The notes beneath the pieces were generated by a model, which had not been told where the DNA came from, searched no databases, and saw nothing but the letters and a program-made list of their open reading frames with translations. Both the position numbers and the translations under genes were made by a program. A stretch of DNA of 64,000 nt from Actinomycetota bacterium. GTDB lineage: Bacteria > Actinomycetota > Acidimicrobiia > Spongiisociales > UBA5794. The stretch spans positions 459 through 64,458 of the forward strand of contig JASJXX010000002.1 of assembly GCA_030123765.1 (NCBI GenBank). Direction: 5' to 3'. This document shows positions 21,505 through 64,000 of the stretch, piece by piece (within the stretch, counting starts at the first letter, position 1; each line of letters opens with the position of its first letter).

Positions 21505-21529
21505 CTGATCACAACCTTTGGTCGTTTCG

Positions 21530-21601: not shown

Positions 21602-21657
21602 CTGTGGTGGCGCGCACACCAAGTCTAGAGGAGGGTCGAGCGTGTATCCCTTCGCTG

Positions 21658-22506: not shown

Positions 22507-23333
22507 GCCCCAAGCTCCTCTGCCTCGGCGATTCGGACGAACTCAGAGGGTGCGAGCTGTTCCGGCCTTGCTGTCGGGTCAATGCGCGCCCTCACGAGGA
22601 TCGACGTTGGATCGACAAGGATGGCGGCCAGGGACCGTCTGAGCATCTTACGGCGCTGGCCAAACGCCACACCTGCGAGCTTCATCGCCCTCGCAGCGGC
22701 AGCGGGCGCTTCCTTACGGTCGAGAACGATCACCGCTGACGCGACTCTCGGCTGCGGCTCGAATACCTGAGGTGGCACCGCAAACGCGAATCTTCCCTCA
22801 GCGTGAAGCCCGACGATGACAGACGGGAGCCCGTACGTCTTGGATCCTTCATCGGCCAGCAGCCTATCGGCAACTTCTCTCTGAACCATGACCACGATGC
22901 GCGTGACCTGTGACACGTGTCGGAGCGTGTCAAGCACGATCCCTGTGCCCACGTTGTACGGCAAGTTCGCGACCATGGTCCACACCCCGGCGCCCAGGGC
23001 CGCGTGGAGATCAATGCGAGCAGCATCCTCGAATCGGAGTTCGACATTTTCGAGGTGCCCTACCGTCTCTTCCAGGATAGGTGCGAGGGACCGATCGATC
23101 TCGTAGGCAACAACGCTTCGAGCTCGGCCCGCCAGAGCCGAAGTGATCGTCCCGGTACCTGCCCCTATCTCAACGACCTGTGAAGAGTTGTCGAGGTCAG
23201 CCTCCGCGACGAGACGTCTCACAATGTTCGGATCAGCGAGGAAGTTCTGACCGTACGAGTAGGTCGGCTGCTGGCCGTGCACTCTCAACAATCGGCGGAT
23301 CTCGCTGCGGGCCTGTGTCCCGTCGTCAACCAC
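22503..23333 (-). CDS. rsmA: 16S rRNA (adenine1518/1519-N6)-dimethyltransferase
   Basis: It has GQNFLADPNIVRRL and the SAM motif VEIGAGTGTIT. The GTG 23333 start was chosen to avoid a long overlap with tatD; the track ORF starts at 23423. Confidence 0.88.
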   Translation of the reverse strand: MVDDGTQARSEIRRLLRVHGQQPTYSYGQNFLADPNIVRRLVAEADLDNSSQVVEIGAGTGTITSALAGRARSVVAYEIDRSLAPILEETVGHLENVELRFEDAARIDLHAALGAGVWTMVANLPYNVGTGIVLDTLRHVSQVTRIVVMVQREVADRLLADEGSKTYGLPSVIVGLHAEGRFAFAVPPQVFEPQPRVASAVIVLDRKEAPAAAARAMKLAGVAFGQRRKMLRRSLAAILVDPTSILVRARIDPTARPEQLAPSEFVRIAEAEELGA

Positions 23334-44042: not shown

Positions 44043-44528
44043 ATGGCCGTCATGGCAAGTGAGCAACAGAGCGGCAGAGTCCTCATGGTGGTTGGAACCG
44101 TGGTTGCGCTGCTGATCGGTGTAGCGGTCGTGGTCGCCATCCAACCTCCACCGGTGTTCGACCCTTCCACCCCCCAGGGCACAGCACAAGGATATTTCAA
44201 CGCCGTGCTCGACGACGACGACGATCTCGCGTTCACCTACTTCAGCGAGAACCTCGAAGAGAGATGCGACGACGACTTCCGTCGATACGACCGAACCGGT
44301 GCCGGTCGGGTCGTGATCACCCGTACCGTAACCGACGGTGACCGTGCCGAACTCGATGTAGTGATCACGGTGAGGCACAGCAGCGGTCCCTTCAGCGACG
44401 GCTCGTACGACGTCGAGGTGACGCTGGTCATGGAGCGCCACGGTGACCGGTGGCTGATCACCGAGCTTCCGTGGCCGTGGGATCTCTACCCCTGTAAATG
44501 GGAACCGGAAACTGAATCGAAAGGTTGA
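44043..44528 (+). CDS. Membrane-anchored hypothetical protein
   Basis: It has a single N-terminal TM (VLMVVGTVVALLIGVAVVVAI) followed by a soluble alpha+beta-looking domain. Its stop overlaps the TTG start of the next gene. Confidence 0.55.
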   Translation: MAVMASEQQSGRVLMVVGTVVALLIGVAVVVAIQPPPVFDPSTPQGTAQGYFNAVLDDDDDLAFTYFSENLEERCDDDFRRYDRTGAGRVVITRTVTDGDRAELDVVITVRHSSGPFSDGSYDVEVTLVMERHGDRWLITELPWPWDLYPCKWEPETESKG

Positions 44529-46291: not shown

Positions 46292-47752
46292 CTACGCCTC
46301 GTCGACTGATGCGTTAAAGGATTCGATCATCTCGTCGATCGGATCTACCAACGCCTGAATACCCGTCCAGTAGTCCGAGTCGTACCACTGGGACTGGATC
46401 TCCTCATACGTCTTACCCTGCTGTTCGACCCACGTGTAATACTTCAGGTTGTGGACTCGCTTACGCTCGTAGTAGTCGAGCTCCTGCACATGTTGGAGGC
46501 TCTGGCCCATGAGATGCTGGTGGTAGGCGGCCGCAGCATCATGCGCCGTGAACTCGCCCCGCTCGTCGTTGAGTTCCGCCAGACGCGACCCGTACATCTC
46601 CATCGAGTCCGTCCCGACCGTCATCACGACGTCGTTCCCTGTGAGCTCGTACCACTTCGCGAACTTGATGGCCATCAACATGTTCGCGACCCCGGAGATA
46701 CCAAGGAGCGGAAGCTTCTCGATGAACGCCGCAGATGCTCCCTGGGCAGCCAGGTAGGCAAGGCCTGCAGGCTCGTTAAAGAGACGGATCAGGCTGATCG
46801 ATGACTCGTCATCGATCCCCATCACCATGTCTGTGTTGCGCACGTTGTGGATCCACGGGATGTGCTTGTCCCCGATCCCTTCTATCCGGTGCTCACCAAA
46901 GCCGTTGTAAAGCATTGTCGGGCACTCGGTCGCTTCACCCGCAACGATCTTCGAGTTCGGATACTGCTGTTTGAGGTAGTCTCCCGACGCGATCGTTCCG
47001 GCCGAGCCCGTTGTCAGGGTCACGCCGGCGAACCGGTCGAGCGGGCCCATGACCTCCCTGAGGACCTCGAACATGGCCGGGCCTGTGACCGAGTAGTGCC
47101 AGAGATAATTTCCGAACTCGTCGAACTGGTTGAAGATCACGAGATCCTCGCCCGAGACCCGCAACTCGTTGCACTTGTCGAAAATCTCTTTGACGTTCGA
47201 CTCGGTTCCCGGCGTCCTGATGATCTCGCCTGCCACGCTCTCGAGCCAATGGAACCGTTCGGCACTCATCCCTTCAGGGAGGATCGCGATCGACTCGCAC
47301 CCGAGGAGATTCGAGTCGTAGGCGCCGCCCCGACAGTAGTTGCCGGTCGAGGGCCATACAGCCTTCTGCGTTGCGGGGTCGAACTGGCCGCTGACGAGCC
47401 TCGGGACGAGGCAGCCGAACGCCGCGCCGACCTTGTGGGCGCCGGTCGGAAACCACTTTCCCTCGAGCATGATGATGCGAGCGTCAACACCGCTGACCTC
47501 GGGGGGAACTTCGAAGTAGTTCACCCCACCAAACCCTCCGCCCGAGGGTGTCGGGTCGTTGTGCCAGGTGATGCGGTACAGGTTGACGGGGTCGAGATCC
47601 CACAGCCCGACGCTGCCGAGGCGCTGCTTCACCTCTTCAGGGACCAGGCTCGGGTCCCGCATCTGCTTGAACGTCGGGATCTTGAAATTCCGCGCCTTTG
47701 CCTGGATGACGGCGGAGCGGAGAACAGACTCGTTGACGGTGAGGTCGATCAT
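46292..47752 (-). CDS. Fold-type II PLP-dependent enzyme (cysteine synthase/CBS-like core with long N- and C-terminal extensions)
   Basis: The candidate PLP-lysine segment is FPTGAHKVGAAFG, followed by WPSTGNYCRGGAYDS...AILPEGMSAERF, which parallels the PxGSxKDR...SGNxG...MPExMSxER pattern. It is 486 aa and the last gene of the carbamate-kinase operon. Confidence 0.7.
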   Translation of the reverse strand: MIDLTVNESVLRSAVIQAKARNFKIPTFKQMRDPSLVPEEVKQRLGSVGLWDLDPVNLYRITWHNDPTPSGGGFGGVNYFEVPPEVSGVDARIIMLEGKWFPTGAHKVGAAFGCLVPRLVSGQFDPATQKAVWPSTGNYCRGGAYDSNLLGCESIAILPEGMSAERFHWLESVAGEIIRTPGTESNVKEIFDKCNELRVSGEDLVIFNQFDEFGNYLWHYSVTGPAMFEVLREVMGPLDRFAGVTLTTGSAGTIASGDYLKQQYPNSKIVAGEATECPTMLYNGFGEHRIEGIGDKHIPWIHNVRNTDMVMGIDDESSISLIRLFNEPAGLAYLAAQGASAAFIEKLPLLGISGVANMLMAIKFAKWYELTGNDVVMTVGTDSMEMYGSRLAELNDERGEFTAHDAAAAYHQHLMGQSLQHVQELDYYERKRVHNLKYYTWVEQQGKTYEEIQSQWYDSDYWTGIQALVDPIDEMIESFNASVDEA

Positions 47753-47777
47753 GACGGACGGTCCTTTCCGTTGCCTC

Positions 47778-49031
47778 TCAATTGCTCAGGGCTGCTTTGA
47801 GCGCCTCGAGGTTCGGGTCGATGTACATGGGCTCGGTCCCGACCGCGGCTACAGCGCTCATGACCGAGGCAACGTCCTTGAGGCCGCTCCCGGTCGCGAG
47901 CATCACGACTCGGTCTCCGGCTCCGATGAGACCACGGTCAAGAGCCGCGACGATACCGGCGTACGGCGCAGCTCCCGCCGGTTCAGCGAAGACGCCCGAT
48001 CCGCGCGCCAACGTCGGTATTGCGGCAAGAATTTCGTCGTCTGCGACACGGAGATACGCTCCCCCCGTCTCGGTGACGGCTGCCATCGCCTTGATACGGT
48101 CACGGGGCAGATCGGCACTGATCGAGTCGGCAACAGTCTCCGCAGAGATAGGGGGCTTGGTCAGCACGTCCTCACCGCTCTCGAAGGCTTGAACGAGATA
48201 GTCACTCCCTGCGGCCTGAATGCCGAAGATACGCGGCACGCGGTCGATCCATCCGAGGGCGAAGGCATCCTTCACGGCCTTGTGGACCCCGCCGATGATC
48301 GACCCGTCGCCGACGCTCACGAAGATGGCGTCGGGGGCCTCCCATCCGAGGTCTTCGAGGATCTCGAGACCGGCGGTTTTCTTCCCCTCCGTCATGAACG
48401 GGTTGTACCCGGTATTGCGGTTGTACCAGCCGTACTCGGCGACGGCCTCCATGCAGAGTTCGAATGCGTCGGTGTACGTGCCATTGACGAGAGCGACCGT
48501 AGACCCGTACGCGAGCAACTGGGCGATCTTCGCTTCCGGCGCGGAGGAGGGGACGAATATCACGCTGCGCAGCCCGACGCTCGCCGCGATTCCGGCGAGG
48601 GCTGCTGCGGCATTCCCCGTCGACGCGGTGGTGACGACCTCCGCCGCACGCGCCTGCGCCTTGACGACGGCCATCGCCGAGGCACGGTCCTTGAGCGACG
48701 CCGTCGGCTGACGCCCCTCGTCCTTTACCCAGAGGTTCGCTATCCCGAGCCTGGCCGCGAGTGGCTTCACGTCATAGAGCGGCGTCCCTCCGATGCTGAG
48801 CGGCGGGACCACCGTGTCGCTGGCGAGCGGCATGAGCGGGAGATATCGCCACATCGTGCGATCTCGATTCTCGGCGAGTACCTCGCGCGTGAAGGTTGCT
48901 CCGATGCGCTCATAGTCGTAACGGACATCGAGTATCCCCTCGTTGCCGTGATCCGTGCAGACGTAACCTGCAAAGTCTTCCGGGTACATCGTGCCACAGA
49001 TCACGCACGCGAGTCCGATGACGTTACTCAT
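47778..49031 (-). CDS. Threonine synthase-like PLP enzyme with N-terminal zinc-ribbon
   Basis: It has the N-terminal CVICGTMY...YVC, then GGTPLY, KDEGRQPTASLKDRAS (PLP Lys) and TASTGNAAAALA. It is 417 aa and has an ATGA overlap with carbamate kinase. Confidence 0.8.
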   Translation of the reverse strand: MSNVIGLACVICGTMYPEDFAGYVCTDHGNEGILDVRYDYERIGATFTREVLAENRDRTMWRYLPLMPLASDTVVPPLSIGGTPLYDVKPLAARLGIANLWVKDEGRQPTASLKDRASAMAVVKAQARAAEVVTTASTGNAAAALAGIAASVGLRSVIFVPSSAPEAKIAQLLAYGSTVALVNGTYTDAFELCMEAVAEYGWYNRNTGYNPFMTEGKKTAGLEILEDLGWEAPDAIFVSVGDGSIIGGVHKAVKDAFALGWIDRVPRIFGIQAAGSDYLVQAFESGEDVLTKPPISAETVADSISADLPRDRIKAMAAVTETGGAYLRVADDEILAAIPTLARGSGVFAEPAGAAPYAGIVAALDRGLIGAGDRVVMLATGSGLKDVASVMSAVAAVGTEPMYIDPNLEALKAALSN

Positions 49032-49969
49032 CGAACGATCCTGGTGCCGGTCTCGCCGGCCATGGCCCGCTCGAGGTTCTCAGGATTTGTGATCAGTGCT
49101 TCGCTGCCTCCAGCCTCGAGGAACTGGACGACGGCACGCATCTTGGGGGCCATCGAACCCTCGGCGAAGTGTCCGCCCTCCTCAAGGTACGCCTTCACCT
49201 CGTCGAGCGTGAACTCATCCATCCACCGCTGATCCGGTGTACCGAAGTTGAGCGCGACCTGCTCGACTGCGGTGCAGATGAGCAGGAGATCGGCTCCGAT
49301 CTCGCTCGCCAGGAGCGCCGACGCGAGATCCTTGTCGATCACCGCCGCGATCCCTTCCAAATCTCCCTCTTCGTTCACAACGACCGGGATACCGCCGCCG
49401 CCGACGGCGATGGTGACGATTCCGGCGTCAACGAGGACCCGGATCACATCAAGTTCGACGATCCGCATCGGATGGGGGGAGGCCACGACACGACGCCAGC
49501 CGCGCCCGGCATCCTCAACGACATCCCAACCCTCCTCGTCGCGCCGGCGCACTGCCTCGTCCTCGTCCATGAAGGATCCGATTGGCTTCGTCGGCTTGTC
49601 GAACGCCGGATCGGCACGATCGACCTCGACCTGTGTGACAACCGTGACGACGCTCTTGTCGATGCCGCGCTGGCGAAAGTCGTTGACCAGGTTCTGCTGG
49701 AGCATGTACCCGATCGCGCCCTGTGTGTCAGCCCCGCAGTAATCGAGCGGGACCTCGTGAAGCTCGTTACTCGCAAGCTCGGACCGTCGCAGGATGAAAC
49801 CGATCTGGGGTCCATTGCCGTGAGAGATCACGACGTCCCACCCCTGCTCAACGAACGTTGCGATACGGTCGTCGGTCTCGGCCGCGGCTGCGTACTGGTC
49901 CTGGACCGACTGGTGCCTGGCGTCCGGGATCAGCGAATTACCGCCAATGGCGATAACGAGTCTGGGCAT
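49028..49969 (-). CDS. arcC: Carbamate kinase
   Basis: It has MPRLVIAIGGNSL and VISHGNGPQIG and is 313 aa, matching the amino-acid-kinase fold of ArcC/YqeA type. Its start overlaps the upstream stop (TAATG). Confidence 0.9.
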   Translation of the reverse strand: MPRLVIAIGGNSLIPDARHQSVQDQYAAAAETDDRIATFVEQGWDVVISHGNGPQIGFILRRSELASNELHEVPLDYCGADTQGAIGYMLQQNLVNDFRQRGIDKSVVTVVTQVEVDRADPAFDKPTKPIGSFMDEDEAVRRRDEEGWDVVEDAGRGWRRVVASPHPMRIVELDVIRVLVDAGIVTIAVGGGGIPVVVNEEGDLEGIAAVIDKDLASALLASEIGADLLLICTAVEQVALNFGTPDQRWMDEFTLDEVKAYLEEGGHFAEGSMAPKMRAVVQFLEAGGSEALITNPENLERAMAGETGTRIVR

Positions 49970-50928
49970 TACTCCCAGGCTCCGAGCACGGACGACAGCA
50001 GAGCCATGCGCATCACGACACCGTTGTAGGCCTCCTGCCAGTACCGGGCATGCTTGAGCTGGTCAACCTCCGGGAGCAGCTCGTCCATTCGCGGGAGCGA
50101 GTGGAGGATGATCGAGTCGCCCTTGGCCCGCTTCATGACCTCAGGAGTGATCTTGTAGTTGGCCGGGGTGAGGCCGTAGTCGTCGGGCCTCTCCTGAACG
50201 GAGAGGGTGTAATCGGGCTGGATGACCGGCTCCATGTAGATCACGTCGGCTTCGGCGATGACATCGTCGATGTGATCGACGACACGGTAATTCGTGCCCT
50301 TCTCGTCGAGCTCGGCAAGGAACTCCGGGAGAGGGGACATCTCCTCGGGAGCGAGGATGACCATCTCGACGTCGAATTGTGACAGGGCGTATCCGAGGGA
50401 GTGCATCGTCCGCATCCGGTGGTCACCGATGGCGACGAACGTGAGCCCGTCGATGGTGCCCTTCTCCTTCAACACGGTGTAGAGATCCGTGAGGATCTGG
50501 GTCGGATGCTCACCCCAACCGTCACCGGCGTTGATGACCGGGATTGAGCACCACTTGGCGGCCTCGTGGGGAGCACCCTGCTCAAAGTGGCGCATGACCA
50601 GGACATCGCCGTAGTACTCCAACATGTGGACCGTGTCTTTGATCGACTCCTGGTAGAAGTCGCCGGCACGCGTCATCTTGGCGTCCGAGAAGCCCGTCAC
50701 GTGACCGCCGAGGCGGTGCATCGCGGCCTCGTGGGCGAGCCGCGTCCGTGTGGAGGGCTGATAGAACGCGGTCACAAGCGTCTTGTGGGCAAGGAGATCC
50801 GTGTTTCGGCGTTCCCGGGCGATCGGCTCAAGGCGGTCGGCAATCTCGAAGAGGTGGAAGAACTCGCTCCGCTCGAAGTCCTTGAGGGAGAGAATGTCGC
50901 GTCCGGTGAAGCTACGCATGCCTGGCAT
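49969..50928 (-). CDS. ATCase-fold carbamoyltransferase with non-canonical acceptor site (not a plain PyrB)
   Basis: The carbamoyl-phosphate motifs STRTRLAHE, VMRH, GEHPTQ and the ATCase-type LHSLPRMDEL are present. The E. coli PyrB segment YMTRVQKER (Arg229, Gln231) reads YMEPVIQPD here. Confidence 0.8.
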   Translation of the reverse strand: MPGMRSFTGRDILSLKDFERSEFFHLFEIADRLEPIARERRNTDLLAHKTLVTAFYQPSTRTRLAHEAAMHRLGGHVTGFSDAKMTRAGDFYQESIKDTVHMLEYYGDVLVMRHFEQGAPHEAAKWCSIPVINAGDGWGEHPTQILTDLYTVLKEKGTIDGLTFVAIGDHRMRTMHSLGYALSQFDVEMVILAPEEMSPLPEFLAELDEKGTNYRVVDHIDDVIAEADVIYMEPVIQPDYTLSVQERPDDYGLTPANYKITPEVMKRAKGDSIILHSLPRMDELLPEVDQLKHARYWQEAYNGVVMRMALLSSVLGAWE

Positions 50929-50956
50929 CCTTTGAGTCGGCTTGGTACATTGGCCA

Positions 50957-50966
50957 TACTATAGTA
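50957..50966. promoter_or_regulatory. Perfect 10-bp palindrome TACTATAGTA in an AT-rich divergent promoter region (candidate GntR/HutC operator)
   Basis: It lies between the divergent starts at 50928 (-) and 50982 (+). It is flanked by GTACA repeats (50946-50950 and 50964-50968) and overlaps -10-like hexamers TATAGT, TACAAT and TATTAT. Confidence 0.45.
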
Positions 50967-50981
50967 CAATATTATGACCCT

Positions 50982-51734
50982 ATGCCATGCGGAGTGCTCC
51001 CGATGATTACCCGCAACCCGTCACTCACCGACCAGGTGAAAGCGCACATCAAAGAGCTCATCCTCACCGACGGTTTCGAGGATGCCCGAATCCCCCCCGA
51101 GACGGAGCTCGCCGCCGACCTCGGAGTCAGCCGCACCACCGTCCGCGACGCGCTGAGTCGCCTCCAGAGCGAGGGAGCGATCTATCGCCGTCAGGGCGCA
51201 GGCACCTTTGTCAACCAGCAGGGCCTCCAGATCAAGTCCCGCCTCGAAGACATCTGGTCCTACGAGAAGCTCCTCGAAGACCACGGATTCGAACCGTCGG
51301 TGCGAGTGCTCGCCGCATCCAAGGCTCCCGCCGACTCCCCCACCGCCGAGGCCCTGGGCCTCAACGACGGCGACATGGTGCTGATCATCGAGAAACTCTT
51401 CCTCGAAGACGAGAAGCCGGTCATGCTGACGATCAATCGCATCCCGACCCACTTCCTGAGCGGAACCGACTACGCCGACGATGAGGCGGCCCCGATCTAC
51501 GAGTTTCTCCAGGACCACTGCGACCGCTCACTGAGCTACTACCTCTCAGAGATCATCCCGGTCGCCCTCGACGCCGACACGGCGTCCAAGCTCGGGGTTG
51601 ATCCGGGCACACCGGCGATCTCATTCGACGAGATCGGATTCGACCAATCCAACGAGCCGCTCGTGCGGGCGACGTCACACTTCCGCGATGACCTCCTTCG
51701 GTTCCGGCTCATCCGCAAGAGAAGCGGGGCATGA
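50982..51734 (+). CDS. GntR family transcriptional regulator, HutC subfamily (UTRA effector domain)
   Basis: It has the winged HTH ETELAADLGVSRTTVRDALSRLQSEGAIYRRQGAGTFV followed by a UTRA-like C-terminal domain. The alternative start is ATG 51003. Confidence 0.88.
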   Translation: MPCGVLPMITRNPSLTDQVKAHIKELILTDGFEDARIPPETELAADLGVSRTTVRDALSRLQSEGAIYRRQGAGTFVNQQGLQIKSRLEDIWSYEKLLEDHGFEPSVRVLAASKAPADSPTAEALGLNDGDMVLIIEKLFLEDEKPVMLTINRIPTHFLSGTDYADDEAAPIYEFLQDHCDRSLSYYLSEIIPVALDADTASKLGVDPGTPAISFDEIGFDQSNEPLVRATSHFRDDLLRFRLIRKRSGA

Positions 51735-51775
51735 ACCATCCTCAGCCAGAGTCACGAGCCACAAAGGAGTAGTTG

Positions 51776-52750
51776 ATGCAGACCTATCTGCGGGGCCGCG
51801 ACATGATCACGACCCAGGAGTGGACCAAGGACGAGCTCGACACGGTGATCGATATCGCCCTCGACCTGAAACGCCGACGGGCTCTCGGTGAGCCGCACGC
51901 TCTGCTACGCGACAAGGTCCTCGCGATGTTGTTCTTCTTCTCAAGCACTCGAACCAGAGCAAGCTTTGAGGCCGGCATGGCCCAGCTCGGCGGCCACGCC
52001 ATGTTCCTCGACTCGACGAGCACCCAGATCGGCCACGGCGACACCTGGAAGGAGATCGGAGACATTCTGGGCCGCTACAACGATGGGATCGCCATCCGCC
52101 AGGTCGACTGGGGCATCGGCAACGACTACATCCGCGCCGTTGCGGAGGCCAGCCGCACCCCGGTGCTCAACATGCAGTGCGACTGGTATCACCCCTTCCA
52201 GGCACTTGCGGACCTGCTGACGATCATCGAGCAGAAGGGCGACCCCCGCAAGCTCACCATCAACATGAGCTACGCGTACGCAGCCAGCTATCAGAAGCCC
52301 ATCAGCGTGCCGCAGAGCCTCATCCTGCTCATGACCCGGTACGGCGCGAACGTGCGCCTCACCCATCCGCCGGAGTTCAAGCTCATGCCCGAGATCATCG
52401 CTCAGGCTGAGGAGAATGCCAAGAAATCCCACGGGTCCTTCGAGATCGTCGAAGACTTCGAGGAGGGGATGCGCGGCGCAGACGTCGTCTACGCCAAGGC
52501 GTGGGGTTCGATGCTCACCACCTCTGACCATGAAGAGTCAGCAAAGATCTCGGCGCATTACCAGGACTGGATCGTCGACCCGAGGCGGATGGAGATGGCC
52601 CACGAGGATGCCATCTACATGCATCCGCTCCCGGCCGACCGAAACGTAGAAGTGGCGGACGCCGTCATCGACGGGCCATCAAGCCGCGTGTTCGACCAGG
52701 CCGAGAATCGGCTCCACGTGCAGAAGGCGGTGATGGCGCTCACGATGTGA
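51776..52750 (+). CDS. YgeW-like (knotted) carbamoyltransferase
   Basis: It has SSTRTRASFE. NMQCDWYHPFQALADL matches E. coli YgeW NLQCDIDHPTQSMADL. SYQKPISVPQSLILLMTRYGANVRLTHP matches SYGKPLSVPQGIIGLMTRFGMDVTLAHP. It also has YMHPLPADR. The RBS AAGGAG lies 6 nt before ATG 51776. Confidence 0.8.
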   Translation: MQTYLRGRDMITTQEWTKDELDTVIDIALDLKRRRALGEPHALLRDKVLAMLFFFSSTRTRASFEAGMAQLGGHAMFLDSTSTQIGHGDTWKEIGDILGRYNDGIAIRQVDWGIGNDYIRAVAEASRTPVLNMQCDWYHPFQALADLLTIIEQKGDPRKLTINMSYAYAASYQKPISVPQSLILLMTRYGANVRLTHPPEFKLMPEIIAQAEENAKKSHGSFEIVEDFEEGMRGADVVYAKAWGSMLTTSDHEESAKISAHYQDWIVDPRRMEMAHEDAIYMHPLPADRNVEVADAVIDGPSSRVFDQAENRLHVQKAVMALTM

Positions 52751-56068: not shown

Positions 56069-56656
56069 CTACTCGCTCTGCAGTTCCTCGTAGTCTCGGG
56101 GGGTGTTGATGTCGCGAGGTGCACTCTGCGCCACCGCAACTTTTACCACGCGGTCGTCCTGCGCGTCGACAAGGAGGCGCCACAGCACCTTCTCCCCCAC
56201 CATCGACGCAGCACACTCCACCGCGTCGCGTGACAGAAGGAAAGGGTGGGCGACCCGGTCGCGGTACGCGGCCACCGCTGCCCAGGGTCTCTCCTCCGTC
56301 CAGACCCCGACCATCGTATTGATGACGGTGGTCCGAACCTGGGGCAGATCGCCCGCCACGAGCAGGAATGCGGCGGCGTCAGGATCCGCGGTAGTCGCCG
56401 TGAGGAGTGACGACATGTTCCCACGGCGGTAGTCCGGATTCGTCACGACCGTCACGGAGACGGCCTTGATCGACGCTTCGACCATCTCTGCATCGCACCC
56501 GGTGACGACGATCACCCTGTCAAGCATGCTCGCCTGGACCGCATCAATCGTCGCGTTGAGTACCGTCGTCCCCTGGTACTCCAGCGTGAGCTTCGATGCT
56601 GCCATCCGCGTCGAGGCGCCTGCGGCGAGAACGACCCCGACGATTGGACGCGGCAT
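56069..56656 (-). CDS. mocA: Molybdenum cofactor cytidylyltransferase (MocA-like nucleotidyltransferase)
   Basis: It has VVLAAGASTRM, matching the MobA/MocA NTP_transf_3 fold. It is the last gene of the Mo-hydroxylase operon. Confidence 0.8.
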   Translation of the reverse strand: MPRPIVGVVLAAGASTRMAASKLTLEYQGTTVLNATIDAVQASMLDRVIVVTGCDAEMVEASIKAVSVTVVTNPDYRRGNMSSLLTATTADPDAAAFLLVAGDLPQVRTTVINTMVGVWTEERPWAAVAAYRDRVAHPFLLSRDAVECAASMVGEKVLWRLLVDAQDDRVVKVAVAQSAPRDINTPRDYEELQSE

Positions 56657-58876
56657 TCAGACCCCGACAATGTCGGTAGGGAGCACCGGAACCCTCGTCA
56701 GTGATCTACCCGTCGCCGCTCGAATAGCCGCGACGATCGCCGGTGTCGAACTGATCGTGGGTGACTCCGCTATCCCCTTCGCCCCGAAGGGACCCCAGTG
56801 GTCCCCCTCTTCGATGATCCGGACTTCGACGTCGGGGGCATCGAGGAACGTCGGAATCAGGTAGTCGGTGAACGTCGGATTCCGGATGACACCCCCGTCA
56901 ATGACAAGCTCCTCCATCACCGCGAAGCCCATGCCTTGCATGATGCCACCCTCGAGCTGCCCCACTATCGCCTGAGGATTGAGTGCCCTGCCGACATCCT
57001 GAGCCGTATCGACACGGACCACGCGCACGAGGCCGAGCTCCGGGTCGACGTCCACCACGGCACGGTGGGCAGCGACGACGAACCCGGCGTGGATCTCCCC
57101 CTGGCCGTCGGCGTCAGGCGGGTAGGTCTTCGGATGCCTGAAGCGAACATGACATTCGACGGGGCCATCGCTGCAGATCTCGTTGACCGTCGCGACAAGC
57201 TCGCCCTGTTTGTACACACCATCATCGCGGAGCTCGTCTCCGCCGTGGAGCGAGAGAATCTGATCACGGAGCCCGACGGCAGCATCATGCACGGCGCCCC
57301 CGGTCATCTGGGTCTGACGGGACGCCGAAGTGGACCCGGCCGAACCGATCTGTGAGGTGTCCTTCCATACGACAGCTACTCGATCAACTCCCAGAACGGT
57401 CCGGGCGATCTGCTGGCAGACGGTGACAAGACCCTGTCCCACCTCTATCGCCGCCGTGTGGATCTCGATGCCTGCGGGGGTCATCACCACCCGGGCCTCG
57501 GCGAAATCGTCGAAGCCTTCGGAGAAAGCGAGGTTCTTCAACCCGACGGCGTACCCGACGCCGCGAACGACCGCTGACCGAGGCGTCGTCAACCCCGTCC
57601 CGCCGGGAGCGAGCCGCGGGTCGTCCGAGGGGATCGGATCCGGAATCGGTATCGATTCGAGCGCATCGATCACCGCGACCGTCGGGAGCGAGCCCTGTAT
57701 GACCTGGCCGGACGTGGCAAAGGGGTCGCCGGGAGCGAGCGCGTTGCGCCGCCGGAGTTCGAGGGGAGCGAGGCCGATCGCCTCAGCGAGGCTGTCCATC
57801 TGGCTCTCGGACGCGAAGCAGGCTTGCACCACGCCGAATCCGCGCATCGCACCCGCCGGAGGATTATTCGTTCGGACGACCACCGCATCGATGACGACGT
57901 TGTCGCAACGATACGGGCCAACGCTGAAGAACGCTGCGTTGGCTATGACCGCCGGGCTCGTGTGGGCGTAGGCCCCACCGTCGAGAATCAGCCGTGCCGT
58001 GACCTTCACCAGATTCCCGTCCTCGTCCGCCTCGTGGCGGTACCACATGCGTGACGGGTGCCGCTTCACATGACCGACGAACGACTCAGATCGGTCGTAC
58101 ACCATCTTCACGCTGCGGCCGGTCGCGAGGGCGAGCATGGCGACGTGGATGTGCAGCGAGATGTCCTCCCGCGAGCCGAACGCGCCGCCGATCCCTGCAG
58201 GGTGGCAACGGACCTGATCGGGTTCCAGATCGAGGCATGCGATGATCTGGCGGTGGTCCACGTGGACCCACTGGCTCGTGATGTACAGGTCGAGACCTCC
58301 CTCCCCGTCCGGGATCGCGAATCCCGCCTCAGGTCCGAGCGGCGCCTGATCCTGCGTCGCTGTCTCGTAGAACCCCTCGACGACAACACTCCCCTCTGCC
58401 GTCTCGTCCCCGCGGCGGATCCTCATCTCGCGGAATGTCGAGCCGATCTCCGCAGCTCTCTCAGGATCATCAAGCGGGTCAAGCGGCTCCCACACCGCCA
58501 CGATCGCCGCAGCGGCACGCCTCGCGGTCTCCTCGTCGTCGGCTGCCACTACGGCAACCGGTTCACCCCAATATCTGGCTGTTCCGTCGCAGAGCACAGG
58601 CTGATCCTGCTCCACCTGACCGAACATGGGGCTACCGACCACGTCGTCCTGCGTCAGGACAGCGTGCACGCCGACCATCGCGAGGGCGGGGCCGATGTCA
58701 AGTTCCGTCAGCGTGGCGTGAGCGTGCGGGCTCCGCAGCGTCGCGCCCCACAGCATCCCCGGCGAGGACAGATCGGACGCGAAGGCGAAGTTCCCTGTGA
58801 CCTTCGGCTCTCCGTCCGGCCTCCCGACGCTGGTACCGATGCCCCCCCGTACCCTGGGCAGCGTTCGAGTCGTCAT
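56657..58876 (-). CDS. Xanthine dehydrogenase family, molybdopterin-binding large subunit
   Basis: It is 739 aa with the N-terminal a/b-hammerhead (GRPDGEPKVTGNFAFASD) and the Moco domains GIGGAFGSRED and GPFGAKGIAESP. Confidence 0.9.
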   Translation of the reverse strand: MTTRTLPRVRGGIGTSVGRPDGEPKVTGNFAFASDLSSPGMLWGATLRSPHAHATLTELDIGPALAMVGVHAVLTQDDVVGSPMFGQVEQDQPVLCDGTARYWGEPVAVVAADDEETARRAAAAIVAVWEPLDPLDDPERAAEIGSTFREMRIRRGDETAEGSVVVEGFYETATQDQAPLGPEAGFAIPDGEGGLDLYITSQWVHVDHRQIIACLDLEPDQVRCHPAGIGGAFGSREDISLHIHVAMLALATGRSVKMVYDRSESFVGHVKRHPSRMWYRHEADEDGNLVKVTARLILDGGAYAHTSPAVIANAAFFSVGPYRCDNVVIDAVVVRTNNPPAGAMRGFGVVQACFASESQMDSLAEAIGLAPLELRRRNALAPGDPFATSGQVIQGSLPTVAVIDALESIPIPDPIPSDDPRLAPGGTGLTTPRSAVVRGVGYAVGLKNLAFSEGFDDFAEARVVMTPAGIEIHTAAIEVGQGLVTVCQQIARTVLGVDRVAVVWKDTSQIGSAGSTSASRQTQMTGGAVHDAAVGLRDQILSLHGGDELRDDGVYKQGELVATVNEICSDGPVECHVRFRHPKTYPPDADGQGEIHAGFVVAAHRAVVDVDPELGLVRVVRVDTAQDVGRALNPQAIVGQLEGGIMQGMGFAVMEELVIDGGVIRNPTFTDYLIPTFLDAPDVEVRIIEEGDHWGPFGAKGIAESPTISSTPAIVAAIRAATGRSLTRVPVLPTDIVGV

Positions 58877-59340
58877 GCTCCCTCACTTGTCAGTGCGGTG
58901 AAGGCGCGCAGGATCGCCCCGTATCCAGTGCACCGGCAGATATTGCCAGATAACGCCTCACGAATCTCAGGCTCGGTCGGGTGCGAGTTCGTCTCGAGCA
59001 GATGCACGCCAGTAACGATGAACCCGGGAGTGCAGAAACCACACTGGACGGCACCCTCTGCGAGCATCACCTCCTGGAGTGGGTGCAACTGCGCGCCCTC
59101 CCCGATTCCCTCGACGGTCGTCACTGTCGCGCCGTCGGCGTCCGCCGCCATGACAAGACACGAGCAGACGGCTGCACCGTCGAAGATGACGGTGCATGAT
59201 CCACACTCCCCCTGCTCACACGCGTCCTTCGTACCCGGCAGACCAAGATCGTTACGAAGTGTGTGCAGCAGGCTCTCGGAACCCGCAACATCCACGGAAC
59301 GTCGCTCTCCGTTAACGGTGATCACGATGGGCACGGTCAC
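58873..59340 (-). CDS. [2Fe-2S]-binding small subunit (CoxS/XdhC-iron-sulfur type)
   Basis: All eight Cys ligands are present: CEQGECGSCTV...CSC and CGFCTPG...CRCTGY. The GTG 59340 start overlaps the upstream TGA. Confidence 0.9.
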   Translation of the reverse strand: MTVPIVITVNGERRSVDVAGSESLLHTLRNDLGLPGTKDACEQGECGSCTVIFDGAAVCSCLVMAADADGATVTTVEGIGEGAQLHPLQEVMLAEGAVQCGFCTPGFIVTGVHLLETNSHPTEPEIREALSGNICRCTGYGAILRAFTALTSEGA

Positions 59341-60137
59341 GCGAGACACCGTTCGGCGAGCCTGCGCGCAAGCACCCCCGCAGCGTGACGTCGATACCCC
59401 TCCGTCGATCGGTGATCGGTGATCGGGCGAACCTCCTCCGACACGATCCGGGAGAACTCCTTGAGCGCCTCTTCGGTGATCCTCGCCTCGGCATTGAGCA
59501 TCTCCTCTGCCCTCGTCACCCGTATAGGCGTCGGCGCCACCGATCCGAGAGCAACACGGAAACCGTCGTCGCCGCGCATGACCACGCAACTCACAATGGA
59601 GATGACCATCGCGTTGCGAGTCCCGACCTTGGCGAACTCCTGAGCCGTAGGGACGTCATCGGGAATAGCGACACCGGTGACCACCTCGTCAGGTTCGAGC
59701 GAGGTGTGTTTGACACCGGTGAAGAACTCGTTCCAGGGAATGACTCGCTCGCCACGCTCCTTCGATCGGACAACGATTCGGGCATTCGCGGCAGCGATCC
59801 AGGGAAGGCCGTCACCAGCCGGGCTCGCGGTCGCGACGTTGCCTCCAATCGTTGCAACGGCACGGATCTGCGGCGAGCCGATGGTCCGGGCAGCCTGAGC
59901 GAGAGCGCCGTGATCCGAGCCCTCGAGTCGGGCCCAGGTAACGCCGGCTCCGATACGGTTCGATGTCATCTCCCTGAGCTCTTCTACGCGTCGCAGGGAG
60001 ATGACCCGCGACGGCCGGCGGTGGGCGATGTTCACCTCCACCATGAGGTCGGTCCCGCCGGCGAGGAGCTGCGCGTCGGGTCGTTGAGCCTTCGCTGCGA
60101 GCGTTTCGTCGAGATTCCGGGCAGCGAGAAAGTCCAT
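59337..60137 (-). CDS. FAD-binding subunit of molybdopterin dehydrogenase (CoxM-like)
   Basis: It has LLAGGTDLMVEVN and ATIGGNVATASPAGD (FAD_binding_5). The start is ATG 60137 (MDFLAARNLDE). Confidence 0.88.
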   Translation of the reverse strand: MDFLAARNLDETLAAKAQRPDAQLLAGGTDLMVEVNIAHRRPSRVISLRRVEELREMTSNRIGAGVTWARLEGSDHGALAQAARTIGSPQIRAVATIGGNVATASPAGDGLPWIAAANARIVVRSKERGERVIPWNEFFTGVKHTSLEPDEVVTGVAIPDDVPTAQEFAKVGTRNAMVISIVSCVVMRGDDGFRVALGSVAPTPIRVTRAEEMLNAEARITEEALKEFSRIVSEEVRPITDHRSTEGYRRHAAGVLARRLAERCLA

Positions 60138-60217
60138 GACCGTACCGTAGCCCGCGGCCCGCTGCCACTTGTCCGTCGCCCGTGGCCGGCGAAGGGCTCC
60201 CGCTGCTCCTCTCCCCG

Positions 60218-61582
60218 TCACCCCACCAGACGCTTCGCGGCCCGATTGTGCTCCTCAATCAGCTTCGGTAGCTCGACGCCCACCAGTTCGCCGTCGCGGA
60301 CGACAGGTTTGCCGTGTACGAAGGAGTGGTCCACGCGCACAGCAGCGGCGAACAGGACTGCCGCGACGGGATCGTGCAACGCCCCGGCGTACTCGATGCG
60401 GTCGAGCGAGATAGCGATGAAGTCCGCGCCTCTGCCAGGCTCAAGCGAACCGATGTCGTCCCTCCCGAGAACCGCTGCCGATCCGCGGGTCGCGATGCGC
60501 AGAACCTCCCTAGCAGTGAGCAGCCTCCCGCCCTCGATCGAGGGCGCCGCCGCGAGGCGGGAGAGCAACATGGCCTGCCGGGCCTCTCCGAGCAGGTGGC
60601 TGCCGTCGTTGCTCGCCGATCCATCGACGCCGATGCCGAGCCGGACGCCGGCCGCCAGGTAGCGGCGAACCGGAGCGATACCCGAACCGAGGCGCATGTT
60701 CGACGATGGGCAGTGGGCGATCCCGGTGCCAGATTCAGCGAGACGGTCGATCTCACCATCGTTGATGTAGACACCGTGGGCGTACCACACGTCATCCCCG
60801 ACCCACCCGAGATCCTCCATGAGCTCGACGGGACGCCGCCCGAACCTCTCGATGCAGAACTGCTCCTCGTCGTACGTCTCAGCAACGTGGGTGTGGAGGT
60901 GGACGCCGTGACGGCGCGCAAGGTTCGCCGATTCGCGCATCAGCTCCTCCGTCACCGAGAAGGGGGAACACGGGGCGACCACGATTCGGGTCATGGCGCC
61001 CGGAGCCGGGTCGTGGAACGCTTCGATGACCCTCTCGGTGTCGAGCAGGATCGCCTCTTGGTCCTCGACGACGGAGTCGGGAGGCAGCCCGCCGTCGCTC
61101 TCGCCGAGGCTCATCGACCCACGCGCTGCGTGGAAGCGCAGACCGACCCCGGCGGCACCCTCGATCTGGTCGTCGAGCCTCGATCCGTTAGGGAAGACGT
61201 ACTGGTGGTCTGACGAGGTCGTGCACCCGGAGAGGGCGAGCTCCGCGAGGGCGAGCCGGGTCGCGATCCGCACGTCGTCGGGTGTGATCCGTGCCCAGAT
61301 TGGGTAGAGCGTGCGGAGCCAGTCAAAGAGGCCGACGTCCTGAGCGCCGGGGACCGCCCGCGTGAGGGTCTGGTAGAAGTGATGATGCGTATTGATGAGC
61401 CCGGGGAGCACGACGTGCCCGGAGAGATCGAGAACTTCGTCTGCGCTGTCGGGGAGCTCGGAGGTCGTGCCTACGTGTTTGATGATCCCGTCCACGGCGT
61501 AGAGACCGCCGTCCGCGATCTCGGTTCCGTCGTCGTCCATGGTGGCCAGAACCTGCGCGTGCCGGACAAGAAGTGTGCTCAT
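60218..61582 (-). CDS. 8-oxoguanine deaminase-like amidohydrolase (guanine deaminase/SsnA superfamily)
   Basis: It has the metal ligands NTHHHFYQTLTR, HTHVAET and VDGSASND. The subgroup blocks SSDHQYVFPNGSRLDD and RFHAARGSMSLGESDGGLPPDSVVE match what I remember for 8-oxoguanine deaminases. Confidence 0.75.
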   Translation of the reverse strand: MSTLLVRHAQVLATMDDDGTEIADGGLYAVDGIIKHVGTTSELPDSADEVLDLSGHVVLPGLINTHHHFYQTLTRAVPGAQDVGLFDWLRTLYPIWARITPDDVRIATRLALAELALSGCTTSSDHQYVFPNGSRLDDQIEGAAGVGLRFHAARGSMSLGESDGGLPPDSVVEDQEAILLDTERVIEAFHDPAPGAMTRIVVAPCSPFSVTEELMRESANLARRHGVHLHTHVAETYDEEQFCIERFGRRPVELMEDLGWVGDDVWYAHGVYINDGEIDRLAESGTGIAHCPSSNMRLGSGIAPVRRYLAAGVRLGIGVDGSASNDGSHLLGEARQAMLLSRLAAAPSIEGGRLLTAREVLRIATRGSAAVLGRDDIGSLEPGRGADFIAISLDRIEYAGALHDPVAAVLFAAAVRVDHSFVHGKPVVRDGELVGVELPKLIEEHNRAAKRLVG

Positions 61583-61682
61583 AGAAGTGAATGTACCAAC
61601 CTACTCAACTCCTACGTCGCTCTCCGAGCTCCGTTCTCTCGGTAAAGTGGAGGCACGGGATAGAAGAGGAGCCGAGACGAAC

Positions 61683-62423
61683 ATGACCATGCAGTACTCC
61701 CGACCCCTCACCCTCGATGAGGCCACCACCCTTGCAGCCCGGCCCGACACCGTGATCATGGCGGGGGGAACGTCCGTTAACGCCGGAGGCGGTAGCTCCG
61801 GTGTCACCGCCGTGGATCTGCAAGCGCTCAACCTCGCCGGAATCGAATCTCTTGGTGCGTTCATCCGCATCGGGGCGATGACGCGCCTTCAGGCACTCGT
61901 GGAATCAGACCTCGTCCCGTTCACTCTCCGCGATCTCGCCCGACGCGAAGCCCCCAGCACGATCCGTAACGCGGCGACGGTCGGTGGTACCGTCGGTGCC
62001 GCGGATCCCGAGAGTGAACTCCTCGCCGGCCTGCTCGCGTTCGGTGCCGTCGTCACTCTCGCGAGGGTGGGTTCAACGACCGACCATGCCCTCGACGACA
62101 TCCTCCACGATCCAGGGCTGATCAGCCAGGCGATCATGACGAGTGTCACGATCCCGACCACCGGAGTCGCTGCCGCCGAACGTACCGGTCGCACGCCGAT
62201 GGACCGACCGATCGTGATGGTCGTTGCCCACAGAGGCGCGGCAGAAGCCGTCCGTATGGCCGTGACCGGAGTCGCACACGTTCCGGTGGTCGTGGATCCA
62301 GAGCGGATCAAAGACCTCGATCCGCCGTCAGACTTCCGCGGGTCACCCGACTATCGAAGGCACCTCGCCACCGTGCTCGCAGACCGGGTCCTTACCGCAG
62401 TCACGGAGAGTGATCCGGAATGA
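61683..62423 (+). CDS. YgfM-like short FAD-binding subunit
   Basis: It is 246 aa with IMAGGTSVN and ATVGGTVGAADPESE (FAD_binding_5). The RBS GAGGAG lies upstream, and there is an ATGA overlap with the next gene. Confidence 0.8.
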   Translation: MTMQYSRPLTLDEATTLAARPDTVIMAGGTSVNAGGGSSGVTAVDLQALNLAGIESLGAFIRIGAMTRLQALVESDLVPFTLRDLARREAPSTIRNAATVGGTVGAADPESELLAGLLAFGAVVTLARVGSTTDHALDDILHDPGLISQAIMTSVTIPTTGVAAAERTGRTPMDRPIVMVVAHRGAAEAVRMAVTGVAHVPVVVDPERIKDLDPPSDFRGSPDYRRHLATVLADRVLTAVTESDPE

Positions 62424-64000
62424 CGATCACCCTCACCATCAACGGGGTCGAGCAGATCCTCTCCTGCGAGCCCCACGAATCGCTACGTTCGGTGCTGCGA
62501 AGAGCCGGATACTTCAGCGTCCGTTACGGGTCGAGCACGGGGGAGACAGGTGCAGCCGCCGTCCTCGTCGACGGCAGCCTCATCTCCGCCGACGTCATGC
62601 TCGGTGCGCAAGCCGACGGCCACGATGTCGAGACGATCGAAGGTCTCAGCACACTCGGCCAACTCCATCCGATCCAGAAGGCATTCATCGACTCGGGCGC
62701 GATCCAGTCCGGGTACTCGACTCCGGCGACGATCCTCGCCGCGAAAGCCCTCATCGACCGGAACCCGAGACCCACCGAGGACGATGTCAGGGATGCCCTC
62801 TCAGGAATACTCGACCGCGAGACGGGTTATCTGCGGCCCGTCCACGCCGTGTTGCGCGCCGCTGCGGTGATGCGGGGAGAGGAACCTGATGACATCGCCA
62901 TCACGCACCTCGATCCTCTCCTTGATGGTGGCAGCGACGCAGCGAGCGCCGATCGCGCCCGGGTCTCCGAGATCGCCCCTCGCGTCGTGCCGTGCAGTGA
63001 CGTCCCGCGGACCCGCGTCGTCGGGCACGCAGAGCCGAAGGTCGACGCTATCAAACTCGTCAAGGGGAACCCTGCGTTCACCGACGATGTCGACCTGACC
63101 GGGACCCTCATCGCGAAGGTCCTCTACAGCCCGCATGCCCACGCGAGAATAACCTCGATCGACGATTCGGCAGCGCGATCTCTCCCCGGCGTCCACGCGG
63201 TCCTGCATCACGGCAACGTGACCCAGGTACGGTACGCGTCTGGTGGTCAGAGTTACCCGAACCCGCTCCCCTACGACCAGGTGAGCTTCGGCGACAAGGT
63301 CCGTTATGTCGGGGACCGTGTCGCCGCCGTTGCCGCCGACACCGAGGAGATCGCGCTCTCTGCGCTCGACCTGATCGATGTCACCTACGAGGTGCTCCCC
63401 GCGGTCTTCGACGAGAACGAGGCAATCCTCGAGGGTGCACCGGTGATCCATGACGAACCTGGGATGGAGGGCGCGCACGATCCGTCCCGCAACATCGTCC
63501 ATCATCTCAAGGCCGACACCGGCGACATCGAGGAAGGCTTCGCTGCTGCCGACCGGATCTTCGAACAGACCTATCGCGTGCACCAGGTACAGCCGGCTCC
63601 GATCGAACCACACGTTGCGATCGCCGCGTGGGACTCCGACGAACGACTTGTCATCACCTCCTCCACCCAGGTGCCTTTCCATATCCGGCGCATGGTCGCG
63701 CCGCTCCTCGGTCTTCCTGTGAAGCGGATCCGCATTATCAAGCCCCGGATCGGTGGTGGGTTCGGAGTCAAACAGGAGCTGCTGATCGAGGATATCGTCG
63801 GTCACCTTACGATGGCTACAGGTCGTCCTGTCCGCCTCGAACTCACCCGCGCAGAGGAGTTCGTCTCGAGCCGCACACGGCACCCTCAGACGATCACTTT
63901 CAAGACCGGTGTCGACGCTGACGGGAGACTCACCGCCCAGGAGATGCGCATCATCGCCAACACCGGTGCATATGGCACTCACGGCCTGACGGTCCAGCTC
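62420..64000 (+). CDS. XdhD-like molybdenum hydroxylase: Cys-less [2Fe-2S]-like domain fused to the molybdopterin subunit (3' end outside the window)
   Basis: This frame is not in the ORF track because it has no stop inside the window. ATG 62420 gives MTITLTINGVEQ...IQSGYSTPATILAAKAL...ALSGILDRETGY then ...HAEPKVDAIKLVKGNPAFTDD...DRVAAVAADTEEIALSALDLIDVTYEVL...IIKPRIGGGFGVKQE, which looks colinear with E. coli XdhD as I recall it. Confidence 0.8.
   Translation, partial: MTITLTINGVEQILSCEPHESLRSVLRRAGYFSVRYGSSTGETGAAAVLVDGSLISADVMLGAQADGHDVETIEGLSTLGQLHPIQKAFIDSGAIQSGYSTPATILAAKALIDRNPRPTEDDVRDALSGILDRETGYLRPVHAVLRAAAVMRGEEPDDIAITHLDPLLDGGSDAASADRARVSEIAPRVVPCSDVPRTRVVGHAEPKVDAIKLVKGNPAFTDDVDLTGTLIAKVLYSPHAHARITSIDDSAARSLPGVHAVLHHGNVTQVRYASGGQSYPNPLPYDQVSFGDKVRYVGDRVAAVAADTEEIALSALDLIDVTYEVLPAVFDENEAILEGAPVIHDEPGMEGAHDPSRNIVHHLKADTGDIEEGFAAADRIFEQTYRVHQVQPAPIEPHVAIAAWDSDERLVITSSTQVPFHIRRMVAPLLGLPVKRIRIIKPRIGGGFGVKQELLIEDIVGHLTMATGRPVRLELTRAEEFVSSRTRHPQTITFKTGVDADGRLTAQEMRIIANTGAYGTHGLTVQL

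Follow-up and report, generated by a model that had tools for sequence, protein, structure and literature searches.

An XdhD-like molybdenum hydroxylase from sediment Acidimicrobiia with a conserved iron-sulfur-type domain devoid of its eight cysteine ligands

We analysed a window, that is, a whole stretch of 64,000 nucleotides, from the assembly GCA_030123765.1 of an uncultured sediment bacterium of the Acidimicrobiia type (contig JASJXX010000002.1, positions 459 to 64,458). At its end, on the forward strand at 62420..64000, lies the 5' part (526 of ~964 codons, running past the window end) of a gene encoding an XdhD-like fused molybdenum hydroxylase. The N-terminal domain of this protein is related to the [2Fe-2S] small subunit of the family, and all eight cysteine ligands have been replaced in it. 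This state is conserved across a clade and was reached independently in Escherichia coli XdhD. We consider it probable that the protein is a cluster-free enzyme of the XdhD / 2,8-dioxopurine dehydrogenase group that works with a YgfM-like flavin adenine dinucleotide (FAD) subunit, in which the N-terminal domain would act as a scaffold and urate would be reduced at the molybdenum site.

The missing ligands are visible already in E. coli K-12 and are not special to the window, yet they have apparently gone unremarked: we found no mention of them in the searchable literature on XdhD, YgfM, YgfN and YgfK, which leaves subscription journals outside its coverage. In the papers covered, XdhD-YgfM was assigned in 2025 as the entry enzyme of bacterial oxygen-free uric acid removal, a pathway of interest for gout, and is modelled as an ordinary xanthine-dehydrogenase-like complex in which reduced nicotinamide adenine dinucleotide (NADH) feeds FAD. 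The loss bears on the mechanism of this enzyme, characterised only in 2025. How an XdhD-type enzyme is reduced becomes a concrete question, since it cannot contain the clusters by which all characterised relatives link FAD and molybdenum.

An iron-sulfur-type domain without cysteine ligands

The frame that begins at the ATG at 62420 is free of stops up to base 63998 (526 codons). An earlier note on this DNA had read it in the same way and had attributed its absence from the list of open reading frames (ORFs) to the want of a stop codon. Translation confirms the open frame, and the mechanical listing skips frames running off the window and shows two wrong-frame ORFs instead (62410-62889 and 62550-62870). 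The note had also aligned the first 150 residues or so with the canonical small subunit encoded nearby on the reverse strand (58873-59340), and this homology lies far above chance. The two align position by position over residues 1-150, with 34% identity. The domain matches Fer2_2 (PF01799; residues 72-144, 74.8 bits, E 6e-21, cutoff 30.3) and the NCBIfam small-subunit model XdhC_XDHase (residues 2-146, model length 151, 113 bits, E 8e-33). In the Pfam search PF00111 (Fer2) was undetected in this domain and matched the canonical neighbour.

The domain comprises a [2Fe-2S] II-type lobe, plant-ferredoxin-like and delimited by the small-subunit alignment (residues 1-75, 62420..62644), and a [2Fe-2S] I-type lobe of the Fer2_2 family (residues 76-150, 62645..62869). 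A linker (residues 151-198, 62870..63013) connects it in frame to the molybdenum cofactor (Moco) part, of which the window holds the a/b hammerhead domain Ald_Xan_dh_C (63014..63400; PF01315, residues 216-327, 92 bits) and the first part of MoCoBD_1, cut by the window end (63485..63997; PF02738, residues 356-525, 189 bits, profile positions 6-175 of 244). These two domains and the motif GGGFGVKQE (residues 445-453), by which the fusion had been recognised earlier, place the protein in the xanthine oxidase / molybdenum hydroxylase family. Full-length orthologs have 963-970 residues in Acidimicrobiia and up to 1008 in Chloroflexota. Those 77-88% identical to the window protein carry the motif GPFGAKAIAEIP with the C-terminal catalytic glutamate, in a part of the gene that for the window lies past its end.

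An AlphaFold2 model of the XdhD-like protein, built with 49 homologues, has a mean predicted local distance difference test score (pLDDT) of 85, with most of the N-domain above 88, the II-type lobe mostly at 88-97 and the linker at 52-73. Its top matches among solved structures are two fused iron-sulfur and Moco aldehyde oxidoreductases, 1sij at a query TM-score of 0.75 and 1dgj at 0.72. The copy of the PDB that we searched holds no solved structure of an XdhD-type protein, the nearest being a Desulfovibrio aldehyde oxidoreductase at 30% identity in the fold alignment. The enzymes of Desulfovibrio gigas and D. desulfuricans (1sij/1vlb and 1dgj) share the single-chain layout of iron-sulfur domain, linker and Moco domain; they differ in binding two [2Fe-2S] clusters through eight cysteines, in acting on aldehydes and in having no FAD partner. 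Pfam, NCBIfam and the model thus agree on a small-subunit sequence with a two-lobed fold, against the possibility, raised in the earlier note, that the domain is unrelated to the 2Fe-2S fold. As modelled, the small-subunit fold is retained and the ligands alone are gone.

The canonical small subunit contains CEQGECGSCTV..CSC, CGFCTPG and CRCTGY and has all eight cysteines. The spacing expected of the ligands, C-x4-C-x2-C...C for cluster II and C-x2-C...C-x-C for cluster I, has 0/8 cysteines in the window protein. Its eight aligned positions are S38 (codon 62531-62533), T43 (62546-62548), A46 (62555-62557) and D58 (62591-62593) at cluster II, and S97 (62708-62710), S100 (62717-62719), D132 (62813-62815) and E134 (62819-62821) at cluster I. 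They fall in the motifs GSSTGETGAAAV (37-48), ISADV (55-59), QSGYSTPA (96-103) and DRETGY (132-137), all of them present as the earlier reading had them. Because every ligand is replaced, the canonical route from Moco through the 2Fe-2S clusters to FAD cannot exist, in agreement with that reading, and the sequence predicts a protein unable to bind the two canonical clusters.

The sole cysteine within residues 1-160 is C16 (codon 62465-62467, in ILSCEP), outside the ligand positions. It is kept in 78/83 members of the cysteine-less clade and is missing from the canonical small subunit of the window.

Conservation of the cysteine-less state

We gathered orthologs from 80 species-level genome loci and two metagenome contigs (82 in total, or 83 sequences with the window protein). 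The 80 loci come nearly all from metagenome-assembled genomes (MAGs) of Acidimicrobiia or Chloroflexota, and the closest relative, L004, is from an Actinomycetota MAG (88% identical). All follow the pattern [S/A]-T-[A/D/S]-[D/E] / S-[S/A/T]-D-E at the ligand positions, except for a cysteine at position 132 in three loci. Every canonical small subunit encoded near the orthologs has 8/8 cysteines.

The domain is about as conserved as the catalytic part of the protein. Mean identity to the window protein over the 82 orthologs is 70% in the II-like lobe and 77% in the I-like lobe, compared with 38% in the linker and 78-79% in the catalytic domains. Among the 83 sequences, the commonest residue at the cluster-I positions accounts for 100% (S97), 87% (S100), 96% (D132) and 100% (E134), where the domain averages 80%. 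Site II is looser, with alanine at one ligand position in 62/83 sequences and variation between serine and alanine at another. The N-terminal 150 residues are under purifying selection, the cysteine-less state is clade-wide and selected, not a product of decay or frameshift, and selection has preserved the FAD subunit along with the empty domain.

Independent losses of the cysteines

The earlier note had pointed out that E. coli XdhD lacks the same cysteines, and the MG1655 sequence bears this out: it has no cysteine in its N-terminal 150 residues, contains QSGYNDPAA and FSRDAGW, and carries D, A, D, S / S, N, S, D at the eight positions. RefSeq still labels it an Fe-S binding subunit. The two proteins share the fused layout of iron-sulfur-like, hammerhead and Moco domains and the absence of the eight ligands, at ~40% overall identity. 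Their replacement residues differ, and so do their hosts, a gut bacterium and an uncultured one from sediment.

To place these losses, we surveyed the ligands of 104 proteins with an iron-sulfur-like domain, 100 of which are representatives at 50% identity. All eight cysteines were present in 83 and none at the aligned positions in 12, while seven lacked the cysteines of cluster II yet had some or all of those of cluster I; some of the 12 and of the seven are fragments. No full-length protein in the survey kept the cysteines of cluster II alone. The window protein is closer to the all-cysteine fused proteins P0122 and P0083 (59-65% identity in the catalytic region, 50-58% in the N-domain) than to E. 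coli XdhD (49% and 34%), which in turn is 62% identical to the all-cysteine P0134 in the catalytic region. Since all-cysteine relatives are closer to the window protein than E. coli XdhD is, the cysteine-less state is convergent and does not descend from a common cysteine-less ancestor.

Neighbour-joining trees (317 columns, 200 bootstraps) give the same picture. The cysteine-less clade of the window is monophyletic in 86.5% of the replicates, and the E. coli clade is recovered in 99.5% of them with the all-cysteine P0134 inside it; the cysteine-less members of that clade are monophyletic on their own in no replicate. A regain of eight cysteines is implausible, which implies at least two complete losses. 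A single origin of the state shared with E. coli XdhD was considered and is ruled out by the identities and the bootstrapped trees. The ligands are thus missing from E. coli XdhD and, through a separate loss, from a large sediment and soil clade of Acidimicrobiia and Chloroflexota. Its repetition suggests that the clusters are dispensable in the XdhD-like subfamily, and the half-cysteine sequences suggest that the FAD-proximal cluster may have been lost first.

Two further loci present other combinations. The half-cysteine relative P0119 (L085 6541-9514) has the ligands of cluster I only, has no adjoining FAD-subunit gene and is called as two pieces (703 + 306 residues). Beside the all-cysteine sister P0095, the FAD-subunit homologue (L084 7226-7999) has THGV in place of the AGGT of the family and may be altered in FAD binding. 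This locus combines a full set of cluster cysteines with an altered FAD motif, the opposite of the window, where the FAD motifs are intact and the clusters gone.

Family assignment and published relatives

The top NCBIfam match of the window fragment is TIGR03313 (XdhD/YgfN), at 424 bits over half the model, and the fused architecture is accompanied by an adjoining FAD subunit of the YgfM type. On this model the full-length ortholog L004, at 88% identity, reaches 733.9 bits, short of the cutoff of 1101.9, and E. coli XdhD scores 2122.8; the runner-up family for L004 is XdhA_XDHase (683 bits). Since L004 falls below the curated cutoff, we class the window protein as XdhD-like, by best match, architecture and partners, and not as a member of the curated equivalog. 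The description of the protein as an XdhD ortholog, made in the earlier note, stands in this broad sense and fails in the strict one, given that score and the closer all-cysteine proteins. The gene probably belongs to the XdhD-like 2,8-dioxopurine dehydrogenase group. The GEG motif, which in E. coli XdhD includes Glu606, is present in the full-length orthologs L004, L013, L024 and L078 and in the all-cysteine relatives, and is missing from XdhA and canonical xanthine dehydrogenase; the corresponding position of the window gene lies past the window end.

Functions have been published for relatives of the window protein. Li et al. (PMC12507026) obtained E. coli XdhD together with a co-purifying protein of ~30 kDa, taken as YgfM, and report that XdhD-YgfM with NADH yields 2,8-dioxopurine from urate, as measured at the end point by liquid chromatography-mass spectrometry with 10 µM enzyme. 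They modelled XdhD on Rhodobacter xanthine dehydrogenase, proposed that Glu606 orients urate, and describe an E. coli strain without xdhA in which xanthine was not consumed (PMC12507026). According to Liu et al. (bioRxiv 10.1101/2025.04.24.650524), XdhAC of Clostridium sporogenes carries out the urate/2,8-dioxopurine reaction in both directions, with methyl viologen and not with NAD(P)H. Compared by description, this 2,8-dioxopurine dehydrogenase is also a fused iron-sulfur and Moco protein at the same pathway step; it differs from the window protein in that iron-sulfur cluster binding domains are described for it, and in having no FAD subunit (bioRxiv 10.1101/2025.04.24.650524). For YgfK, the literature assigns a reaction of its own, the reduction of 2,8-dioxopurine, and Haft and Self (2008) list YgfK, YgfM and YgfN as iron-sulfur, FAD and molybdenum subunits.

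Electron supply to the molybdenum centre

In the reading that we favour, the N-domain would be a cluster-free structural adaptor holding the flavoprotein onto the Moco domain, a case in which a domain lost the cofactor that it once bound and was itself preserved for its shape. Catalysis would take place at the molybdenum centre and is most likely the step from urate to 2,8-dioxopurine in reductive purine breakdown, an assignment that we infer from homology, the conserved GEG motif of the full-length orthologs and the gene context. The strongly conserved patch formed by S97, S100, D132 and E134 probably takes the former place of cluster I and packs against the pterin. In the alignment, E134 corresponds to the second cysteine of the C-x-C motif of D. 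gigas aldehyde oxidoreductase, which we take to contact the amino group of the pterin in that structure. Its place at this contact would explain the strong conservation of site I.

In the characterised relatives, FAD and molybdenum are ~30 Å apart or more. Direct tunnelling over such a spacing is far too slow for metabolism, so another electron route is needed. Electrons would then reach or leave molybdenum by a way other than the wire of molybdenum, cluster I, cluster II and FAD. Candidate routes are an exchange at molybdenum with a second substrate or a small reductant, a separate iron-sulfur partner, and very slow long-range transfer from FAD.

Several observations weigh against this interpretation. 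The NADH-dependent activity of E. coli XdhD-YgfM, as reported by Li et al. (PMC12507026), hints at a route from FAD to molybdenum that a pure scaffold leaves unexplained. The tight conservation of the FAD subunit is a hint in the same direction. The high conservation of S97, D132 and E134 could reflect a bound ion or cofactor and not packing alone. The catalytic half of the window gene lies outside the window, and with L004 below the TIGR03313 cutoff the window protein could have a substrate other than the one that E. coli XdhD uses. The neighbour-joining trees, built on 317 columns, have some deep nodes with 43-56% support. Finally, YgfK is encoded within 10 kb in only 8/82 relatives and is missing from the window.

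A bolder proposal, which we advance tentatively, as possible but doubtful, is that a branch of the xanthine oxidase family shed both clusters at least twice, kept the empty domain and the FAD subunit, and feeds molybdenum by an undescribed route. This could be a direct redox exchange at the molybdenum site, possibly a redox-neutral shuffle of hydroxyl groups between purines, or a new docking partner. If true, the first enzyme of reductive uric-acid breakdown would feed its molybdenum by a route new to the family.

We think it unlikely that a separate iron-sulfur protein docks near Moco and has made the internal clusters redundant. YgfK is the obvious candidate, under the old proposal of a YgfK/YgfM/YgfN complex, which the subunit listing of Haft and Self would fit. 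The E. coli gene row ygfK-ssnA-ygfM-xdhD and the YgfK homologues within 10 kb in some relatives (including L002, L019, L020, L024 and L025) also speak for it. However, YgfK has its own assigned reaction, and the only protein reported to co-purify with E. coli XdhD has ~30 kDa (PMC12507026). The earlier note had suggested a search for a ygfK-like partner in the vicinity; we found none in the 62 kb of the window upstream of the XdhD-like gene, nor in the 10 kb that follow the gene in L004 and L013, the closest relatives, and with 8/82 loci the association is rare.

An altered wire from FAD to molybdenum could also survive if the N-domain still held a redox-active or metal cofactor through its conserved serine, threonine, aspartate and glutamate residues. 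The 87-100% conservation of S97, S100, D132 and E134, the retention of an FAD subunit with its FAD motifs and the NADH-dependent activity reported for E. coli would be expected from such a cofactor. Site II makes an implausible metal site, with its alanine in 62/83 sequences and serine or alanine at another position, and would break the chain right beside FAD. Moreover, the replacements differ between the clade of the window (S,T,A,D/S,S,D,E) and E. coli (D,A,D,S/S,N,S,D), and we know of no [2Fe-2S] cluster with all-oxygen ligation. We regard this explanation as improbable.

Equally improbable, in our view, is an enzyme that needs no external electrons, working as a transhydroxylase or dismutase by a ping-pong mechanism at molybdenum. 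The oxidation of a purine or aldehyde-type substrate would be paired with the dehydroxylation of urate, leaving the FAD subunit a structural role or that of a slow re-activator. Such a mechanism is compatible with the loss of both clusters at least twice in the subfamily, the FAD-side one first, with the canonical xanthine dehydrogenase and urate-forming deaminase encoded next to the gene, and with the two reaction directions reported for the C. sporogenes homologue. Against it, E. coli cells without xdhA are reported not to consume xanthine, which means that xanthine is not oxidised in vivo by XdhD on its own; the FAD subunit retains its FAD-binding motifs, and the second substrate is hypothetical.

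Decay or assembly error, a refuted alternative

The last alternative is decay, of the gene or of its N-domain, or else an artefact of sequencing or assembly behind the cysteine-less reading. Its one support comes from three related contigs (L002, L003 and L031) with frameshifted copies. The L002 break, once traced, proved to be the insertion of one base; 42 other loci stay in frame at that site, and the breaks of L003 and L031 lie at other sites. Full-length proteins of 963-1008 residues are encoded in 29/32 loci examined. Four runs, each belonging to another study, yielded contigs that cover 61600-64000 with zero inserted or deleted letters, and 7/9 strain single-nucleotide polymorphisms inside the XdhD-like ORF are synonymous, at third positions in this frame. 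With an N-domain that is 70-77% conserved and replacements that recur across 80 species, this alternative is effectively refuted.

The more specific case named in the earlier note, a frameshift in 62420-62900 that would restore a separate cysteine-containing subunit, was tried and rejected: each of the other two frames of this interval contains stops, the contigs are free of indels, and the fused frame is found in 80 species.

The frameshifts of the three related contigs lie near the 3' end of the XdhD-like gene (L002 12539-12600; L003 ~6570-6733; L031), create an overlapping ORF of 80 residues and are probably assembly errors or strain pseudogenes. Of the words sampled from the interval 61600-64000, 84-100% are present in sediment and marine-sediment metagenomes of three studies and a smaller share in runs of other studies, with polymorphisms between strains. 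In one run (X5), a contig of 2616 bases reaches ~1.7 kb beyond the window end. The interval also occurs in contigs from libraries labelled metatranscriptomic (whole-genome amplification, WGA), where it may reflect expression, DNA carry-over being possible.

Gene neighbourhood

The gene immediately upstream (61683..62423, forward strand) encodes the YgfM-like FAD-binding subunit of 246 residues (FAD_binding_5, 80.8 bits). Its top NCBIfam match is TIGR03312 (YgfM), at 71.9 bits and below the cutoff of 241.5. The mechanical ORF begins at 61539; the start is most likely the ATG at 61683, and the L003 ortholog also has 246 residues. The protein retains two motifs that are usual in the FAD-binding subunits of its family, AGGT and T-V-GG. 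Its TGA (62421-62423) overlaps the ATG of the XdhD-like gene in an ATGA, the translational coupling to a YgfM-like subunit that the earlier note had described. A YgfM-like gene adjoins the XdhD-like gene in 74/82 related loci. In E. coli, XdhD-YgfM (b2881/b2880) has the same order, with the FAD subunit gene immediately upstream and overlapping stop and start.

Next to this pair and divergent from it runs a gene for an amidohydrolase of the 8-oxoguanine deaminase type (60218..61582, reverse strand; NF006055, 679.8 bits for a cutoff of 532), with urate as its predicted product. It gives the single SsnA-like match of the window, a weak one (24%). Then follows, on the reverse strand, a canonical three-subunit xanthine dehydrogenase (56657..60221), with the large subunit at 56657-58876 (731.6 bits on pucD), the small one at 58873-59340 and the FAD subunit at 59337-60221. 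This enzyme of the PucCDE/XdhABC type has the same domain families as the XdhD-like protein; it differs in its separate subunits, its eight cysteines and the lack of the GEG insertion. A putative MocA-like molybdenum cofactor cytidylyltransferase (56069..56656, reverse strand) matches TIGR03310 at 131.8 bits, below the cutoff of 186.45; its syntenic counterpart in L002 is 29% identical to E. coli MocA.

The selenium-dependent molybdenum hydroxylases described by Haft and Self (2008) are marked by adjoining YqeB, YqeC and MocA accessory genes and by selD in the genome. A MocA-like gene lies in the window, and relatives have YqeB- and YqeC-like genes directly downstream of the XdhD-like gene, at a position past the window end; such accessory genes are also found near E. 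coli XdhD-YgfM. The GEG motif with Glu606 is shared with E. coli XdhD by the full-length orthologs of the window protein; YgfK and SsnA, unlike in E. coli, are not adjacent at the window locus. Downstream of the gene, relatives encode an XdhC-like protein, a match to the C-terminal half of YqeB, and YqeC. HyuA-like genes occur in 14/82 loci, SsnA-like genes in 15/82 and YgfK, within 10 kb, in 8/82. In L002 the homologues are 43% (HyuA), 36% (YgfK) and 35% (SsnA) identical to those of E. coli. The L013 cluster ends after a HyuA-like amidohydrolase, and the next genes downstream in L004 are a PnrA-type nucleoside ATP-binding cassette transporter and an adenosine deaminase. These loci extend a purine pathway module to marine-sediment actinobacteria.

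In the clade, two adjacent genes (L002 12875-14484; L004 4736-6351) stand in for YqeB (541 residues in E. coli): one encodes a protein of the XdhC/CoxI type, the other a protein of ~265 residues matching the C-terminal half of YqeB at 49% identity. L002 also has a second fused Fer2_2 and Moco gene (21053-22712; 854 residues, running off the locus) beside its YgfK, SsnA and HyuA genes.

Further upstream in the window, a group of genes at 46292-52750 is possibly the downstream half of a uricolysis-type pathway. On the reverse strand it includes a carbamate kinase (49028-49969; 47% identity to E. coli YqeA), an aspartate-carbamoyltransferase-like gene (49969-50928) and two enzymes of the pyridoxal phosphate-dependent beta family (47778-49031 and 46292-47752). 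On the forward strand are a GntR/HutC regulator (50982-51734) and an ornithine-carbamoyltransferase/YgeW-like gene (51773-52750; 325 residues), 36% identical to YgeW and without the knotted insert. The two carbamoyltransferases might stand in for YgeW and YgeY. Beside this group, an ORF of 584 residues at 44525-46279 (forward strand) has no NCBIfam match; it could be a genuine orphan gene, or an ORF that arose by chance in GC-rich DNA.

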